Sequence record: NC_052663.1
Length of the DNA: 64,000 bases
Source: Escherichia phage VEcB
Reading direction: 5' to 3' (one strand)
A model generated the notes under the pieces. The model did not search any database, had not been told where the DNA came from, and saw nothing but the letters and a program-made list of their open reading frames with translations. This document shows, in pieces, positions 18,994-22,104 of this stretch (positions within the stretch are counted from its first letter, which is position 1; each line of letters opens with the position of its first letter). The position numbers were made by a program, and so were the translations under genes.

Positions 18994-19069
18994 GGTTCCA
19001 TAGCTCACTGACGAGAGCGCACACCTCATAAGTGTCGAGGGCAGGGATTGTAACCCTGGGGAACCACCA
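18994..19069 (+). tRNA. tRNA with anticodon CAT (Met or Ile2), atypical T-loop
   Basis: hand fold: acceptor GGTTCCA/GGGAACC, D-stem GCTC/GAGC, anticodon loop CTCATAA, T-loop ATTGTAA, encoded CCA. Confidence 0.5.
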
Positions 19070-19100
19070 TTTAAAAGGAGGTGCTATGCATCTCCTATAT

Positions 19101-19186
19101 GCAAGTGTGGTGGAATTGGTGATACACATTGTGCTTAAAACGCAACGCTTAAATGATTGAGGGTTCGAATCCCTCCACTTGCACCA
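19101..19186 (+). tRNA. tRNA-Leu (anticodon TAA), type II
   Basis: acceptor GCAAGTG/CACTTGC, anticodon loop CTTAAAA, long variable arm, T-arm GAGGGTTCGAATCCCTC, CCA. Confidence 0.75.
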
Positions 19187-19188
19187 AC

Positions 19189-19297
19189 GCCTAGTAGGGT
19201 ATTTGGTAATTCCGAGGCCATCAAAGCCTGAAAAATATGTTAGACCGTTTTGTCTAACTAAATACGAAATATGGTTCGATTCCATAACTAGGCTCCC
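19189..19297 (+). tRNA. atypical tRNA-like element; anticodon-like loop CATCAAA (TCA) with about 40-nt variable region; possibly pseudogene
   Basis: perfect 7-bp acceptor GCCTAGT/ACTAGGC and T-arm TATGGTTCGATTCCATA, but 4-bp anticodon stem, A at position 33, internal 7-bp hairpin GTTAGAC/GTCTAAC, no CCA. Confidence 0.35.
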
Positions 19298-19329
19298 GAT
19301 TTAAATAGTAATTTTTTAATAAAAATATC

Positions 19330-19358
19330 TTGACATTTACTTAGTTTTTTGTTATAGT
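19330..19358 (+). promoter_or_regulatory. sigma70-like promoter TTGACA-N17-TATAGT
   Basis: -35 at 19330-19335, -10 at 19353-19358, immediately upstream of a tRNA-like element. Confidence 0.5.
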
Positions 19359-19369
19359 TACTATGAAAA

Positions 19370-19451
19370 CGGGGTGTATCTCACCTGACTTCTAATCAGG
19401 CGTTAACCGAGTAATTGGAGTATGCAGGTTCGAATCCTGTCACCCCGGCCA
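19370..19451 (+). tRNA. atypical tRNA-like element (canonical acceptor, T-arm and CCA; anticodon-like loop CTTCTAA; no recognisable D-arm)
   Basis: acceptor CGGGGTG/CACCCCG, T-arm GCAGGTTCGAATCCTGT, hairpin CCTGA-CTTCTAA-TCAGG, GNRA hairpin CCGA-GTAA-TTGG; D region only 7 nt. Confidence 0.35.
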
Positions 19452-19469
19452 AAAAGTTTTAAAAACTAC

Positions 19470-19499
19470 TTGACAAGCAAGATAGTTTTATGTTAGATT
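19470..19499 (+). promoter_or_regulatory. sigma70-like promoter TTGACA-N18-TAGATT
   Basis: -35 at 19470-19475 upstream of tRNA-Ser. Confidence 0.4.
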
Positions 19500-19514
19500 T
19501 AAAGTATGGTAACA

Positions 19515-19604
19515 GGAAGGTAGGGCGCAGCGGTGCGCAACCAGGTTTGAACCCTGGCCCATTGTAGCGATACGGTGATGGTTCGACTCCATTATCTTCC
19601 TCCA
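19515..19604 (+). tRNA. tRNA-Ser (anticodon TGA), type II
   Basis: acceptor GGAAGGT/ATCTTCC, anticodon arm CCAGG-TTTGAAC-CCTGG, long variable arm, T-loop TTCGACT, CCA. Confidence 0.7.
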
Positions 19605-19610
19605 AATTCA

Positions 19611-19775
19611 ATGAGTGATTTTATGAATTATAAAACTATTGGACAGGTTGTTACCGGAGTTAAGATTGTAAATAATAAAGTTGTTTATGAGTATTCTAAT
19701 CTTCAACAATCTGAAGATGGTAAGAATATTCGTATGGTAAAAGCAGAACAAAAAGATTCCGGTTGTTTTGAATAA
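19611..19775 (+). CDS. small hypothetical protein inside tRNA island (start uncertain)
   Basis: track ORF 19575-19775 begins inside tRNA-Ser; first ATG outside the tRNA is at 19611; no clear RBS. Confidence 0.25.
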   Translation: MSDFMNYKTIGQVVTGVKIVNNKVVYEYSNLQQSEDGKNIRMVKAEQKDSGCFE

Positions 19776-19783
19776 TTAAAAAC

Positions 19784-19869
19784 GGTAGATTGGTGAAATG
19801 GTAGCCACAACAGTTTGCTAAACTGTCGTCGGAAACGGCGTGTAGGTTCAAGTCCTACATCTACCGCCA
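19784..19869 (+). tRNA. tRNA-Ser (anticodon GCT), type II
   Basis: acceptor GGTAGAT/ATCTACC, 3-bp D-stem, anticodon loop TTGCTAA, long variable arm, T-arm GTAGGTTCAAGTCCTAC, G73, CCA. Confidence 0.7.
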
Positions 19870-19997
19870 AGTTATCTTTAATGTAGCGTTGAGGCTACTT
19901 ACTTTAGCAGAGTAAACTTTCGGCAGATGGTGGCAGCCATTTTACCGATACCTCATAGTCAGTGCCGCAAACACTGGCTATTTTAAAGATAATTTAT
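19870..19997 (+). ncRNA. structured non-coding region without tRNA T-arm (possible small stable RNA)
   Basis: hairpins GTAGC-N6-GCTAC and CAGTG-CCGCAAA-CACTG; no ORF; lies between tRNA genes. Confidence 0.25.
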
Positions 19998-20072
19998 ACA
20001 TCGTTAGCTTAGTTGGTAGAGCAAGGGCTTTTAACTCCAAGGTCGAAGGTTCGAATCCTTCACGATGTACCA
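19998..20072 (+). tRNA. tRNA-Lys (anticodon TTT), weak anticodon stem
   Basis: acceptor ACATCGT/ACGATGT, D-arm GCTTAGTTGGTAGAGC, loop CTTTTAA, T-arm GAAGGTTCGAATCCTTC, CCA; anticodon stem has two mismatches. Confidence 0.6.
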
Positions 20073-20077
20073 AACAC

Positions 20078-20164
20078 GTAGGTATCGCATAGCGGCAATT
20101 GCTGGAGACTGTAAATCTCCTGCCCTTCGGGGCTTCGTTGGTTCGAGTCCAACTACCTGCACCA
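20078..20164 (+). tRNA. tRNA-Tyr (anticodon GTA), type II
   Basis: acceptor GTAGGTA/TACCTGC, anticodon arm GGAGA-CTGTAAA-TCTCC, variable hairpin GCCC-TTCG-GGGC, T-loop TTCGAGT, A73, CCA. Confidence 0.75.
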
Positions 20165-20171
20165 AATTAAA

Positions 20172-20256
20172 GATGGATTGGCCTAGTGGTTGGGCGACGG
20201 ACTGTTAATCCGTGAACGAAAGTTCTAGCAAGGTTCAAATCCTTGATCCATCGCCA
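20172..20256 (+). tRNA. type II (long variable arm) tRNA carrying Asn anticodon GTT
   Basis: acceptor GATGGAT/ATCCATC, D-stem GCC/GGC, anticodon arm ACGGA-CTGTTAA-TCCGT, 15-nt variable arm with GAAC-GAAA-GTTC hairpin, T-arm CAAGGTTCAAATCCTTG, G73, CCA. Confidence 0.6.
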
Positions 20257-20260
20257 AATA

Positions 20261-20328
20261 GTGCTTGTAGAGTTAATAGAAACCTCTAGAATTTTCTAGA
20301 ATTGTAGGTATCAAATCCTACCAAGCAA
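20261..20328 (+). pseudogene. degenerate tRNA-like remnant
   Basis: acceptor-like GTGCTTG...CAAGCA, T-arm-like GTAGG-TATCAAAT-CCTAC (8-nt loop), palindrome TCTAGA-ATTT-TCTAGA in place of anticodon arm. Confidence 0.3.
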
Positions 20329-20335
20329 ATATTTT

Positions 20336-20410
20336 GCTCCTATCGTATAACGGCTATTACGGTTGCCTTGTAAGCAACTTATCAGGGTTCGAGTCCTTGT
20401 GGGAGCACCA
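20336..20410 (+). tRNA. tRNA-Thr (anticodon TGT)
   Basis: acceptor GCTCCTA/TGGGAGC, anticodon arm GTTGC-CTTGTAA-GCAAC, T-loop TTCGAGT, CCA. Confidence 0.75.
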
Positions 20411-20427
20411 ATTTTAACTCTAAAGGA

Positions 20428-20757
20428 GTGTATGTGACAGAAAAAGAGTTAGAGAAATATTTTAATATCAATGTTTTCGATGGTTTTGATGATATTGAAG
20501 ATGTTGAAAGATATTATGAAGTAGAGTTAGATAGGGATAACATTGTAATTCTTTCTGCCACTTATGATTGTGCATATTATGAAGGCGAATCTCACGTTTA
20601 TTTTTATGATATGAAAACATCTTTGTTTTATGAAGTACACGCATATCATTGTTCTTGTTATGGCTTAGAAGGTCAGTGGGAACCTGAAGAAATAGGTGAT
20701 TTGGACTTTACTATTGCATATCTAAACAGACGTGGTTCATCTACTATTTTAAAATAA
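20428..20757 (+). CDS. hypothetical protein (GTG start at 20428 or 20434)
   Basis: 109 aa ORF directly after tRNA-Thr; AAAGGAG RBS abuts the GTG. Confidence 0.4.
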   Translation: MYVTEKELEKYFNINVFDGFDDIEDVERYYEVELDRDNIVILSATYDCAYYEGESHVYFYDMKTSLFYEVHAYHCSCYGLEGQWEPEEIGDLDFTIAYLNRRGSSTILK

Positions 20758-20771
20758 ATATCAAAAGCCTC

Positions 20772-20801
20772 TTGACAAAGGGGCTAATAATATGTTAGAG
20801 T
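20772..20801 (+). promoter_or_regulatory. sigma70-like promoter TTGACA-N18-TAGAGT
   Basis: -35 at 20772-20777 upstream of tRNA-Gly. Confidence 0.4.
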
Positions 20802-20812
20802 AATATTGTTAA

Positions 20813-20887
20813 GCGGGTATAGTGTTAATGGTAGCATATGAGGTTTCCACCCTCCAGGTGCAGGTTCAAGTCCTGTTACTCGCTCCA
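20813..20887 (+). tRNA. tRNA-Gly (anticodon TCC)
   Basis: acceptor GCGGGTA/TACTCGC, anticodon loop TTTCCAC, T-arm GCAGGTTCAAGTCCTGT, CCA. Confidence 0.6.
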
Positions 20888-20901
20888 AGATTATTTAAAT
20901 G

Positions 20902-20967
20902 GAATCGCTAGAGAAAATTTCTCTTTTTGCTCATGGTTTTCTCCTTCAAACTCTAGCGGTTCTTTTT
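20902..20967 (+). other. long imperfect hairpin (12-bp stem, about 37-nt loop) followed by T run
   Basis: GAATCGCTAGAG at 20902-20913 pairs with CTCTAGCGGTTC at 20951-20962 (11 of 12), then TCTTTTT. Confidence 0.3.
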
Positions 20968-20986
20968 AAGTGATTTTTTAGTTTAT

Positions 20987-21061
20987 TGGAGATTAGCCTA
21001 GTGGGAAGGCAACGGCCTTTGAAGTCGTGATGACTAGGTTCGATTCCTAGATCTCCAGCCA
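20987..21061 (+). tRNA. tRNA-Gln (anticodon TTG)
   Basis: acceptor TGGAGAT/ATCTCCA (U1-A72), anticodon arm ACGGC-CTTTGAA-GTCGT, T-arm CTAGGTTCGATTCCTAG, CCA. Confidence 0.7.
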
Positions 21062-21103
21062 ATTAATTGCATAGCATGAGTATTTCTCATTGGTTAAAAG
21101 GAG

Positions 21104-21469
21104 ATGCAAGTGAATTGTGAACATTGTGGTAGTGAGTTTACTTTGATAAAAGGTCATGGTGGACAAAACAGATTATACTGTTACACTTGTATTCCAGAAG
21201 GTTTAGATAAACAAGTACACACAAGATTACATCAAGAGCTTAGAAGAGAGCGATCTCATAGGATGAAACTTGATTTAGGTTGCAAAGTGTGTGGTTATGC
21301 TAAATGTGCAGTAGCACTAGAATGGCATCACCCAGAGGACGATAAGAAACACAATCCATCAAATGCAATCAAAAGATCTTGGTCTGCTTACTTAGAAGAG
21401 ACTGAAAAGTGTATCTTACTATGTGCCAATTGTCATAGAGAAGTACATGCTGGTCTTATACAGGTTTAA
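21104..21469 (+). CDS. HNH endonuclease (small, inside tRNA island)
   Basis: 121 aa; Cys pairs CEHCG and CYTC, C-terminal LLCANCHREVH HNH motif. Confidence 0.55.
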   Translation: MQVNCEHCGSEFTLIKGHGGQNRLYCYTCIPEGLDKQVHTRLHQELRRERSHRMKLDLGCKVCGYAKCAVALEWHHPEDDKKHNPSNAIKRSWSAYLEETEKCILLCANCHREVHAGLIQV

Positions 21470-21470
21470 T

Positions 21471-21546
21471 CAGTGCGTAGCGCAGTTGGTAGCGTGGGAG
21501 CCTTGGACGCTTCAGGTCGCAGGTTCGAGTCCTGCCGCACTGACCA
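21471..21546 (+). tRNA. tRNA-Pro (anticodon TGG)
   Basis: acceptor CAGTGCG/CGCACTG, D-arm GCGCAGTTGGTAGCGT, anticodon loop CTTGGAC, T-loop TTCGAGT, CCA. Confidence 0.7.
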
Positions 21547-21551
21547 AATTT

Positions 21552-21626
21552 GCAGAGATAGCTGAGACGGATTAGTGCTACCCTGAAAAGGTAGAAAGGA
21601 TGGATCGTTACCATCTCTCTGCACCA
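21552..21626 (+). tRNA. tRNA-Phe (anticodon GAA), atypical T-loop
   Basis: acceptor GCAGAGA/TCTCTGC, anticodon arm CTACC-CTGAAAA-GGTAG, T-arm GATGG-ATCGTTA-CCATC, CCA. Confidence 0.6.
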
Positions 21627-21703
21627 AATAACACCATCCAAGGAGTAGACTTGGTTAACTGTCAATAGCACATTGAGGCTTCTTACAGTGGTGTACTTAT
21701 TAT

Positions 21704-21788
21704 GGCTAAGTGGTGGAATGGTATACACGATACGCTTAGAACGTATTGCCCCAAGGGATTGTGAGTTCGAGTCTCACCTTAGCTACCA
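21704..21788 (+). tRNA. tRNA-Leu (anticodon TAG), type II
   Basis: acceptor GGCTAAG/CTTAGCT, anticodon arm ATACG-CTTAGAA-CGTAT, long variable arm, T-arm GTGAGTTCGAGTCTCAC, CCA. Confidence 0.7.
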
Positions 21789-21803
21789 AATTATTACAGA
21801 TTG

Positions 21804-21881
21804 TGCGGGATAGAGGAGTCTGGTCGTCCTCGCCAGTTTCATATGCTGGAGATCATCGGTTCGAATCCGATTCCCGCCTCC
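21804..21881 (+). tRNA. tRNA-Met (anticodon CAT)
   Basis: acceptor TGCGGGA/TCCCGCC with mismatched 1:72 pair, anticodon arm CCAGT-TTCATAT-GCTGG, T-arm ATCGGTTCGAATCCGAT, CCA. Confidence 0.65.
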
Positions 21882-21940
21882 AATAAATACCTCCCTTCTG
21901 GTGTAATGATTAAGTTACATTGACACTTCAAGGAAATCAT

Positions 21941-22023
21941 AGCCGGGTAGATTTAAAAGAGTATGGTACTCAATATGGCTCCAAACCATAGATCAAGGGG
22001 TTCGATTCCTCACCTTGCTGCCA
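21941..22023 (+). tRNA. tRNA-Trp-like (anticodon CCA); 5' boundary uncertain
   Basis: anticodon arm TATGG-CTCCAAA-CCATA, T-arm AGGGGTTCGATTCCTCA, acceptor 3' CCTTGCT-G-CCA; 5' acceptor AGCCGGG pairs 6 of 7; extra 9-11 nt before D-stem. Confidence 0.4.
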
Positions 22024-22028
22024 ATTAT

Positions 22029-22104
22029 TGTGGTATCGTACAGATGGTTAGTACACTCGACCGATAATCGAGAAACAACGGTTCGACTCCGTTTACCACG
22101 ACCA
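22029..22104 (+). tRNA. tRNA-Ile (anticodon GAT)
   Basis: acceptor TGTGGTA/TACCACG, D-stem GTAC/GTAC, anticodon arm CTCGA-CCGATAA-TCGAG, T-arm AACGGTTCGACTCCGTT, CCA. Confidence 0.7.

Follow-up and report, generated by a model that had tools for sequence, protein, structure and literature searches.

A gene for a tRNA with the asparagine anticodon GUU, built with the long variable arm that in cellular bacteria is reserved for Ser, Leu, Tyr and Sec tRNAs, is carried by Escherichia phage VEcB, a phi92-like E. coli myophage, and the same design is common in phages, where it most likely keeps asparagine identity and may help the tRNA escape host tRNA-cutting defences. The gene lies on the + strand of the 64,000-nt stretch of NC_052663.1 that was analysed here (the window). 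A reading of the sequence alone had described a type II tRNA with G73, a 15-nt variable arm, a 3-bp D stem and an asparagine anticodon, and this observation was confirmed, apart from the extent of the D stem. Its interpretation, which left open either serylation while reading AAC/AAU or an Asn tRNA of unusual architecture, was partly supported: the evidence favours the second option and disfavours the first, although serylation is not excluded by experiment. The accompanying premise that long arms are restricted to Leu, Ser, Tyr and Sec tRNAs holds for cellular bacteria, but not for phage tRNA sets.

To assess whether the gene and its fold are real, we combined gene prediction, covariance-model alignment, minimum-free-energy folding and comparison with homologues. 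ARAGORN called tRNA-Asn(gtt) at exactly the coordinates given in the table. A standard type I fold from a covariance model had been named beforehand as the outcome that would count against a type II tRNA; instead, Rfam RF00005 matched over its full length at 56.5 bits (gathering score 29; E = 2.9e-12 for the local search), in line with the canonical tRNAs of the cluster, and placed a 12-nt insertion in the variable region. The minimum-free-energy fold was a five-arm cloverleaf at -29.5 kcal/mol (z = -2.6). Across 12 homologues from four phage groups, 100% of 299 pair cells formed standard pairs and 14 of 25 pairs carried changes on both sides, with covariation in all five helices, including the extra arm (GAAC/GUUC, GAGA/UCUC, GUUC/GAAC, GAGU/ACUC), and no shuffled or slid control came close. 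The anticodon, G73, CCA and the conserved tRNA core bases were invariant in these 12 sequences. The cloverleaf thus has the 7-bp acceptor, the D, anticodon and T arms and the conserved core bases (U8, G18G19, U33, GTTCRA T loop) expected of a tRNA, and its 15-nt variable region satisfies the type II criterion of at least 10 nt forming its own stem-loop. By contrast with the 3-bp GCC/GGC D stem of the sequence-only reading, a fourth pair, 13:22, is U.G here and covaries as G.U/U.G/A-U across the family. The D arm is therefore closer to a type I 4-bp stem with a 7-nt loop, as also aligned by Rfam, and lacks the unpaired 13:22 and enlarged loop of E. coli Ser, Leu and Tyr tRNAs (11 nt between the 3-bp stems of E. 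coli Ser/Tyr), whereas phAPEC8-type homologues are closer to that type II pattern. A pseudogene or prediction artefact is highly improbable given these data, although some neighbouring genes in related records are flagged as pseudo-tRNAs. An intron or assembly artefact as the source of the extra 10 nt was likewise rejected, since the segment is a covarying hairpin in the variable region and is identical in dozens of independent genomes.

Table. Features of the long-arm tRNA-Asn(GUU) gene and the cluster that holds it, in window coordinates.
Feature	Coordinates (strand)	Sequence or content	Further observations
Whole tRNA gene	20172..20256 (+)	Type II tRNA-Asn(GUU), 85 nt including the encoded CCA	100% identical in phi92 and about 50 other phage records, where it is annotated tRNA-Asn
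Acceptor stem, 5' strand	20172..20178 (+)	GAUGGAU, pairing with 20246-20252 (AUCCAUC): G1-C72, A2-U71, U3-A70	5 of 7 pairs show changes on both sides across homologues
D arm	20181..20195 (+)	GCCU-AGUGGUU-GGGC: G10-C25, C11-G24, C12-G23 and a U13.G22 wobble; 7-nt loop	13:22 covaries
Anticodon arm	20197..20213 (+)	ACGGA-CUGUUAA-UCCGU, anticodon GUU at 20204-20206	Retains the U36-A-A-U-C|C41 sequence at which AriB cuts host tRNA-Asn (PMC12409363)
Long variable arm	20214..20228 (+)	4-bp stem GAAC/GUUC, GAAA (GNRA) tetraloop, then three unpaired bases UAG (15 nt)	3 of 4 pairs compensatory across homologues; same geometry as most viral type II Asn arms
T arm	20229..20245 (+)	CAAGG-UUCAAAU-CCUUG	2 of 5 pairs compensatory
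Discriminator and 3' end	20253..20256 (+)	G73 and encoded CCA	
tRNA gene cluster	18994..22104 (+)	15 ARAGORN tRNAs plus tRNA-like elements; immediate order Lys(UUU) 19998-20072, Tyr(GUA) 20078-20164, Asn(GUU), Thr(UGU) 20336-20410	No other Asn tRNA; same order in the phi92 RefSeq annotation, between the PRPP synthetase/NAMPT genes and the lysis/terminase genes

To determine how widespread the architecture is, we searched phage and cellular sequences. Homologues of 83-86 nt were found in phAPEC8-like, Klebsiella, Seunavirus, many T5-like and some T4-like phages, with hundreds of matching cultured enterobacterial phage records, whereas T5 itself has a type I Asn. In IMG/VR, about 9% of sampled phage tRNA-Asn genes were type II. 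In cellular assemblies such genes occurred almost only inside tRNA arrays, and a BLAST search of 5,426 complete E. coli genomes returned no match, indicating no host or prophage copy at that sensitivity. Literature searches, together with term look-ups in the main phage-tRNA and defence papers, found no mention of a long-arm Asn tRNA in phages.

We next asked which amino acid the tRNA is likely to carry. It has the complete published E. coli Asn identity set, GUU plus G73, and these two elements transfer Asn identity into tRNA-Lys in E. coli (Giege and Eriani 2023). Its anticodon arm differs from that of E. coli asnT at one base (A27 for G27) over positions 26-43, and the family consensus is identical. 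Relative to the type I tRNA-Asn of E. coli (asnT/U/V/W), with which it presumably shares the synthetase, the Q34/t6A37 modification context and the codons, it has a stem-loop variable arm in place of the 5-nt loop AUGUC, G1-C72/A2-U71 in place of U1-A72/C2-G71, and otherwise unrelated acceptor, D and T arms. U1-A72, which is typical of bacterial tRNA-Asn and a determinant for GatCAB transamidation, is thus absent here, but it is not required in hosts with AsnRS, such as E. coli. Across the viral class in IMG/VR, type II Asn tRNAs had U1-A72 in 67/96 and G73 in 89/96, against 79/124 and 116/124 for type I Asn, while U1-A72 occurred in 0/118 Ser and 3/68 Tyr. With the arm and anticodon loop masked, the nearest body was a type I Asn for 46/96, although type I Asn made up only about 6.5% of the comparators. 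V-armed Thr tRNAs likewise kept G1-C72 (12/13) and C2-G71 (13/13). The body of the window tRNA itself, however, is not clearly Asn-like: crude, sequence-only isotype profiles gave Gln 38.8, Trp 32.9 and Asn 29.7 bits. To test for an origin from the phage's own Tyr or Ser tRNAs, identity was compared with the arm and anticodon loop masked, and was only 51-64% to the window's Tyr/Ser and 67% to Gln. A Tyr origin for the class is weakened by the arm loops, which are GNRA in 49/86 Asn arms against 3/55 Tyr arms. Tyr identity is also at odds with G73 and GUU, as A73 is present in 68/68 viral Tyr tRNAs, and G73 is an antideterminant for the Tyr and Leu synthetases, whose tRNAs carry A73.

A serine-accepting or dual-identity tRNA, in which host SerRS would recognise the long arm plus G73 so that AAC/AAU codons are partly read as Ser (deliberate mistranslation), appears unlikely. 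In its favour, the tRNA has a long arm, G73, G1-C72 and C11-G24, the last reportedly a Ser element (Normanly et al. 1992); SerRS ignores the anticodon and relies on the arm and tertiary shape; tRNA-Ser anticodon mutants mistranslate in yeast; and allo-tRNAs with a long arm and G73 insert Ser in E. coli. In addition, T5-like homologues carry G1-C72, G2-C71, C11-G24 and G73, which together resemble the Ser set. By contrast, the window tRNA has A2-U71, whereas G2-C71 is reported in a review as absolutely conserved in E. coli tRNA-Ser and was present in 110/118 viral tRNA-Ser. Its arm, with 4 bp and 3 unpaired 3' bases, matches the geometry of viral Tyr/Leu arms rather than that of Ser arms (5-7 bp in 84/119 and 0-2 unpaired bases in 112/119 viral Ser; 5-7 bp in E. 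coli Ser), and the arms of viral type II Asn tRNAs in general are short (3-4 bp, 3-4 unpaired 3' bases). The D loop lacks the extra bases of Ser D loops, and acceptor features across the class track Asn, not Ser. Asn codons are 5.6% of codons in the sampled ORFs of this AT-rich phage, including the structural genes, so substantial Ser insertion would be highly mutagenic for the phage itself, and AsnRS would compete through a full cognate anticodon.

Taken together, these data lead us to favour, with moderate confidence, a functional phage-encoded asparagine tRNA that host AsnRS most likely charges through GUU and G73, which then decodes AAC/AAU, and whose compact arm (3-4 bp capped by a GNRA loop, followed by 3-4 unpaired bases) is inserted in the variable region while the anticodon arm stays host-like. 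In this view the arm is under selection, since it covaries and recurs in many phage lineages, and its most likely role would be to change the shape of the anticodon/D-arm limb, so that host defence nucleases which cut host tRNA-Asn, of which PARIS AriB is the known example, or other body-recognising tRNases bind it poorly, leaving the AsnRS determinants and the decoding-optimised anticodon arm untouched. The gene, its fold, its conservation, its Asn-type sequence features and its phage-restricted distribution are established by the analysis, whereas charging by AsnRS, in the absence of charging data for any type II Asn tRNA, and any protective role of the arm are inferred. Class II synthetases of the AspRS type approach tRNA from the variable-region side, so a long arm could also hinder AsnRS.

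Several lines of evidence make evasion plausible. E. coli tRNA-Asn(GUU) is a secondary target of AriB, cut at 40/41, and the second AriB subunit is modelled on the D loop. The phage gene sits in a tRNA-rich region beside Lys(UUU), Tyr and Thr(UGU), like the phage tRNAs known to evade defence nucleases (T5 tRNA-Lys/Thr/Asn against AriB; SP15/T5 tRNA-Tyr against Retron-Eco7 PtuAB), and SP15 tRNA-Tyr escapes PtuAB through a longer variable loop. The type I Asn of T5 instead has a disrupted anticodon stem. V-armed Thr(UGU) also co-occurs with V-armed Asn (12/65 against 1/61, p = 0.002). However, known escapes change bases at or near the cut site or lengthen an existing arm, whereas here the exact AriB cleavage sequence is kept and a whole new arm is present, so that protection would have to come from shape alone. 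We considered whether the T5 tRNA-Asn used in the PARIS rescue experiments is a homologue of this tRNA, but the T5 gene is a 78-nt type I Asn with a mismatched anticodon stem, and the Asn tRNA of Bas34 (SelmaRatti), which fails to protect against PARIS, is annotated at 77 nt, also type I; neither is informative on this architecture. A single-nuclease explanation is also too narrow, as V-arms in these phages are not confined to known AriB targets, with Met, Ile, Cys, His and Trp variants also present. A search for a phage-encoded tRNA-handling partner found no homologue in the window of the YqeY-like 'tRNA amidotransferase' of T5, and the phi92 neighbourhood shows no tRNA enzymes.

Two other accounts of the arm were weighed against this one. 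The arm may be a neutral relic of tRNA gene remoulding in fast-evolving phage tRNA arrays, arising from an insertion or from recruitment of a type II body by anticodon and discriminator changes, with no function of its own because AsnRS needs only GUU and G73. This is possible but unlikely. Body changes would be cheap if the anticodon and G73 alone carry identity, phage tRNA sets also contain type I Leu tRNAs and V-armed tRNAs of many isotypes, a mycobacterial tRNA cluster is reported to have a short-arm tRNA-Leu, and the D arms of viral type II Asn range from type I-like to Ser-like, which suggests several origins. By contrast, the arm is maintained by compensatory changes across Stephanstirmvirinae, Seunavirus and Demerecviridae, converges on one GNRA-capped design, recurs in about 9% of sampled phage Asn tRNAs and co-occurs non-randomly with V-armed Thr, and 20 of 91 loci keep a type I Asn beside it, which argues for a distinct role. 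Alternatively, the RNA could act mainly as a sponge or competitive inhibitor of a defence nuclease, for example AriB, or V-arm-cutting PtuAB, which cuts tRNA-Tyr(GUA) in the variable loop. The PARIS authors raise the possibility that overexpressed viral tRNAs inhibit AriB by competition, and tRNA-Tyr differs by one anticodon base, has a similar arm geometry and is encoded next to this gene. This reading is very unlikely, since full conservation of GUU, G73, CCA and a decoding-type anticodon arm is what a working translator requires and more than a decoy needs, the gene is the only Asn tRNA of an Asn-rich phage, and GNRA loops are rare in Tyr arms.

These observations bear on the textbook view that in bacteria only Ser, Leu, Tyr and Sec tRNAs carry a long variable arm, and that the arm is a major identity mark for SerRS, as a tRNA of this design is fixed in well-studied E. 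coli phages (phi92, phAPEC8 relatives, many T5-like phages). If AsnRS charges it, a class IIb synthetase tolerates an extra arm and SerRS discrimination relies on finer features than arm plus G73. If the arm blocks defence nucleases, it adds a new mechanism to phage tRNA counter-defence, and would also explain why these phages keep a host-identical anticodon arm. The design may also be useful for engineering nuclease-resistant or orthogonal tRNAs.

More tentatively, and with considerable doubt, long-arm versions of normally short-arm tRNAs, with Asn the most frequent and Thr(UGU), Met, Ile and Lys co-occurring with it, may form a widespread phage-specific tRNA class not described in the literature searched. 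Phages would add a compact GNRA-capped arm to ANN-decoding tRNAs as a shape disguise, keeping cognate synthetase identity and a host-optimal anticodon arm while escaping tRNA-targeting immune nucleases such as AriB, which would be a second, architecture-level route of tRNA immune evasion alongside the known point mutations in the anticodon stem-loop. Long variable arms combined with anticodons outside Ser/Leu/Tyr are already known in eukaryotic nev-tRNAs (Hamashima 2016) and in bacterial/phage allo-tRNAs (Mukai 2017, PMC5389517), which raise the same question of whether the anticodon or the arm decides the amino acid. Allo-tRNAs, however, have 8/4 or 9/3 acceptor/T branches and Sec-like D arms, and insert Ser or Ala, whereas the tRNA described here has a normal 7/5 branch and retains the identity set of its anticodon's amino acid.

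To establish the extent and architecture of the gene, tRNA prediction with ARAGORN was combined with a search using Rfam's tRNA model and with folding of the sequence. ARAGORN found 15 tRNA genes in the cluster on the + strand, one of which was called as tRNA-Asn(gtt) at exactly the coordinates tabulated below. The Rfam model matched this gene full-length at 56.5 bits, against a gathering score of 29, and placed a 12-nt insertion in the variable region. Read directly from the sequence, the gene is GAUGGAU UG GCCU AGUGGUU GGGC G ACGGA CUGUUAA UCCGU GAACGAAAGUUCUAG CAAGG UUCAAAU CCUUG AUCCAUC G CCA, and the unconstrained MFE fold is the corresponding five-arm cloverleaf (-29.5 kcal/mol, z = -2.6). 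The observation made in the sequence-only reading, of an anticodon loop CUGUUAA, a 15-nt variable arm with a GAAC-GAAA-GUUC hairpin and G73, was therefore confirmed, with one correction: the D stem, which had been described as 3 bp, has a fourth pair, U13.G22.

Coordinates of the tRNA-Asn gene and of the other features described in the text (window, the phage sequence analysed; L258, the phage T5 locus used for comparison).
Feature	Sequence	Coordinates	Strand
tRNA gene cluster	window	18994-22104	+
tRNA-like gene, loop CUUCUAA	window	19370-19451	+
tRNA-Ser(UGA)	window	19515-19604	+
tRNA-Lys(UUU)	window	19998-20072	+
tRNA-Asn(GUU), ARAGORN call	window	20172-20256	+
tRNA-Asn(GUU), Rfam tRNA model match	window	20172-20253	
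tRNA-Asn position 15	window	20186	
tRNA-Asn position 48	window	20228	
Spacer following tRNA-Asn	window	20257-20335	+
T5 rna3	L258	5878-5952	-
T5.081, 'tRNA amidotransferase'	L258	13618-14052	-

The window belongs to a phi92-like E. coli myophage (Justusliebigvirus, Stephanstirmvirinae), and its 3.2-kb tRNA cluster is 96-98% identical to those of vB_Eco_PATM, ALITA and related phages. The 85-nt gene is 100% identical in phi92 and about 50 other records, where it is annotated simply as tRNA-Asn. Diverged homologues of 83-86 nt, all with GUU, were found in Klebsiella Stephanstirmvirinae (92-93% identity), in Seunavirus SSE121 and KE23 (84%), in phAPEC8-like Phapecoctavirus (75%), in T5-like Demerecviridae (Lindwurm, Stubb, PSTCR5, and roughly 250 Tequintavirus/Epseptimavirus records), and in T4-like Klebsiella, Cronobacter and Salmonella phages. 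In an alignment of 12 of these, all 299 pair cells of the five-helix structure formed standard pairs, and 14 of 25 pairs showed changes on both sides. Within the variable-arm helix, 3 of 4 pairs showed compensatory change (GAAC/GUUC, GAGA/UCUC, GUUC/GAAC, GAGU/ACUC), and the 13:22 pair covaried as GU/UG/AU, whereas shuffled and slid controls were far lower. GUU, G73 and CCA were invariant. These data show that the gene is real and under selection. In the same alignment, the Levitt pair 15:48 was G:G in the phi92-like, Klebsiella and Seunavirus members, A:U in the phAPEC8-like members and G:C in the T5-like members; G15:G48 is unusual, and is best known from E. coli tRNA-Cys.

To assess how widespread this architecture is, we scanned IMG/VR with a pattern that only long-arm Asn tRNAs can match (CTGTTAA, 20-30 nt, GGTTCRANTCC). 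At least 120 stretches matched, and among the 120 taken forward ARAGORN called about 100 tRNA-Asn(gtt) of 80-94 nt, which were very diverse in sequence and many of which came from 100-400-kb contigs. A pattern that matches both architectures gave 10 type II among 108 Asn tRNAs (about 9%). By contrast, when the long-arm pattern was applied to one genome per prokaryotic species, only about 16 long Asn tRNAs were found in 120 stretches. Three of these were archaeal genes whose extra sequence lies beside the anticodon, apparently introns, while 10 of the 12 clearly bacterial ones lay in loci with 10-36 tRNAs per 8 kb, that is, in tRNA arrays. Among these cellular assemblies, long-arm tRNA-Asn genes in Mycobacterium, Verrucosispora, Thermoguttaceae and others (our loci L142, L150, L205, L233, L238 and others) sit in dense arrays of 18-36 tRNAs within 8 kb. 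No copy was found in 5,426 complete E. coli genomes. The architecture is therefore a feature of phages and mobile tRNA arrays, not of cellular tRNA sets. Twenty of 91 viral loci with a type II Asn also held a type I Asn, whereas the phi92-like window does not.

The sequence-only reading had proposed either that the tRNA is serylated while reading AAC/AAU or that it is an Asn tRNA of unusual architecture. To discriminate between these, we compared it with published identity elements. For E. coli, the Asn identity set is the three anticodon bases plus G73, which together are sufficient to transfer Asn identity into tRNA-Lys (Giege and Eriani 2023), and both are present here. The anticodon arm differs from that of E. 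coli asnT at one base (A27 for G27), and the family consensus GGCGGACUGUUAAUCCGU is identical to asnT positions 26-43. For Ser, the review states that identity rests mainly on the size of the extra arm and on tertiary shape. Measured against that, the window tRNA has G1-C72 but A2-U71, and its arm is a 4-bp stem followed by three unpaired bases. In unique viral tRNAs the arm geometry of type II Asn matches that of Tyr, not Ser; E. coli Ser arms have 5-7 bp. All 68 viral Tyr and 90 of 92 viral Leu tRNAs, however, have A73.

Variable-arm geometry in unique viral tRNAs.
Isotype	n	Stem length	Unpaired 3' bases
Ser	119	5-7 bp in 84	0-2 in 112
Asn (type II)	96	3-4 bp in 71	3-4 in 64
Tyr	68	3-4 bp in 46	3 in 39

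At the class level, type II Asn tRNAs carry the acceptor signature of type I Asn. With the arm and anticodon loop masked, the closest body was a type I Asn for 46 of 96, although type I Asn made up only about 6.5% of the comparators. V-armed Thr tRNAs likewise keep G1-C72 (12/13) and the Thr-type C2-G71 (13/13). These long-arm tRNAs thus look like their anticodon's isotype with an arm added, not like Ser or Tyr tRNAs with a changed anticodon.

Acceptor-stem and discriminator features by tRNA class (number of tRNAs carrying each feature).
Class	n	U1-A72	G73	G2-C71
Asn type II	96	67	89	38
Asn type I	124	79	116	60
Ser	118	0	95	110
Tyr	68	3	0	48

For the window's own lineage the body is idiosyncratic: crude profiles gave Gln 38.8, Trp 32.9 and Asn 29.7 bits, with Ser outside the top five, so that its ancestry is unresolved but nothing points to Ser. 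Asn codons make up 5.6% of codons in the window's long ORFs, and this is the only Asn tRNA that the phage encodes in the cluster; substantial Ser insertion would damage the phage's own proteins. On this sequence evidence alone, we consider charging with Asn likely and significant serylation unlikely. The T5-like homologues, which have G1-C72, G2-C71, C11-G24 and G73, are the members in which dual charging is least unlikely. The interpretation in the sequence-only reading was therefore partly supported, in that this is an unusual Asn tRNA, for which serylation is unlikely. The finding broadens from one odd gene to a common phage tRNA design.

Whereas the fold, its conservation and its distribution are drawn directly from the sequence comparisons, the amino acid with which the tRNA is charged and any role of the arm are inferred. 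The nuclease AriB of PARIS cuts between positions 40 and 41 of the anticodon stem, and in an AlphaFold 3 model its second subunit sits on D-loop U16-U17. T5 tRNA-Lys escapes through substitutions at positions 39 and 41, and base-specific contacts distal to the anticodon loop are also needed (PMC12409363). T5's own Asn is type I with a mismatched anticodon stem. The window tRNA instead keeps the host cut-site sequence U36-A-A-U-C|C41, and adds an arm that emerges between the 3' strand of the anticodon stem and the D/T core, along the limb that the AriB dimer is modelled to span. There is a direct precedent for variable-arm changes defeating a defence nuclease, since the phage SP15 tRNA-Tyr escapes through a 5-nt longer loop (PMC12673091; see also PMC13096335). 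Within the window, the Asn gene sits in the run Lys(UUU)-Tyr-Asn-Thr(UGU), which are the tRNAs known to be targeted by PrrC, PARIS and Retron-Eco7. The phage tRNA-Lys(UUU) in this run has a very weak anticodon stem (AAGGG/CUCCA, only three pairs including one G.U), and its sequence U36-A-A-C-U-C-C differs from the E. coli U36-A-A-U-C-A at the AriB cut site, which fits a nuclease-escape variant.

Exploratory statistics, obtained as post hoc tests on ARAGORN calls, fit a shared pressure. V-armed Thr(UGU) co-occurred with V-armed Asn (12/65 against 1/61, p = 0.002), and in loci with a type II Asn, other U36 (ANN-decoding) tRNAs were V-armed more often than the rest (37/275 against 31/509, odds ratio 2.4, p = 0.0008). 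The arm also converges on a compact design with a GNRA cap (49/86, GAAA in 33). Across the IMG/VR loci (L018-L137 and L259-L366), phage tRNA sets contained long-arm versions of many normally short-arm isotypes, namely Thr(UGU) 13/88, Met 12/111, Cys 9/55, Ile(UAU) 9/30, Lys 7/116, His 5/59 and Trp 5/64, together with 62 short-arm tRNA-Leu. The appearance of V-arms on Cys, His and Trp tRNAs, and the occurrence of the class in phages from many environments, argue against a PARIS-only story, and T5 and Bas34, which were used in the PARIS work, both have type I genes, so that protection by the arm is at present a hypothesis without nuclease data for any type II Asn. A neutral-relic explanation therefore remains a serious, if less likely, rival.

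Compared with known systems, the gene satisfies every criterion tested for a tRNA, and has a type II variable arm but not the typical type II D arm. It carries the two sequence elements of E. coli Asn identity, lacks the Ser features that could be assessed (G2-C71 and arm geometry), and lacks the Tyr features (A73 and GUA). It is not an allo-tRNA, because it has a 7/5 branch rather than 8/4 or 9/3. In its inferred function, its closest analogues are the phage tRNA variants that evade defence nucleases, whereas structurally they are the non-canonical V-arm tRNAs of nematodes and the allo-tRNAs, which appear to follow the arm rather than the anticodon in identity. The existence of the gene is not new, as it has been annotated as tRNA-Asn since the phi92 genome was published. 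However, full-text searches and term look-ups in the main phage-tRNA and defence papers returned no description of its long-arm architecture or of the phage-wide class, although a prior mention cannot be excluded since these searches did not extend to most subscription journals or to the 1980s T5/BF23 tRNA sequencing literature.

Further observations were made in the cluster and in T5. The tRNA-Ser(UGA) folds with an 8-bp acceptor stem, a 4-bp T stem, a 5-bp D stem with a tetraloop, a 7-bp variable arm and U73, and is scored best by Rfam as tRNA-Sec-like, at 35.3 bits, below the gathering score. This is the 8/4 'allo-tRNA-like' tRNA-Ser shape that Mukai et al. reported for some bacteria and their phages, and it is annotated as a pseudogene in phi92. 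A further tRNA-like gene was missed by ARAGORN but scored 38.6 bits with the Rfam tRNA model. It has a 7-bp acceptor stem, only 7 nt where the D arm should be, an anticodon arm with loop CUUCUAA (UCU, Arg AGA), a long variable region with a 4-bp hairpin, a normal T arm, and G73 plus CCA, whereas phAPEC8 has an ordinary tRNA-Arg(UCU) in its cluster. Near its tRNA region, T5 annotates a 144-aa 'tRNA amidotransferase' (T5.081), for which tblastn found no homologue in the window. Finally, the spacer right after tRNA-Asn folds into a tRNA-like shape, with a 6-bp closing stem, a 6-bp hairpin and a T-arm-like hairpin (z = -2.7). It shares the motif UGUAGAGUUAA..AAACC and the same fold with phage T5 'rna3', which is annotated in T5 as a putative tRNA-like RNA and which also lies directly after T5's tRNA-Asn.
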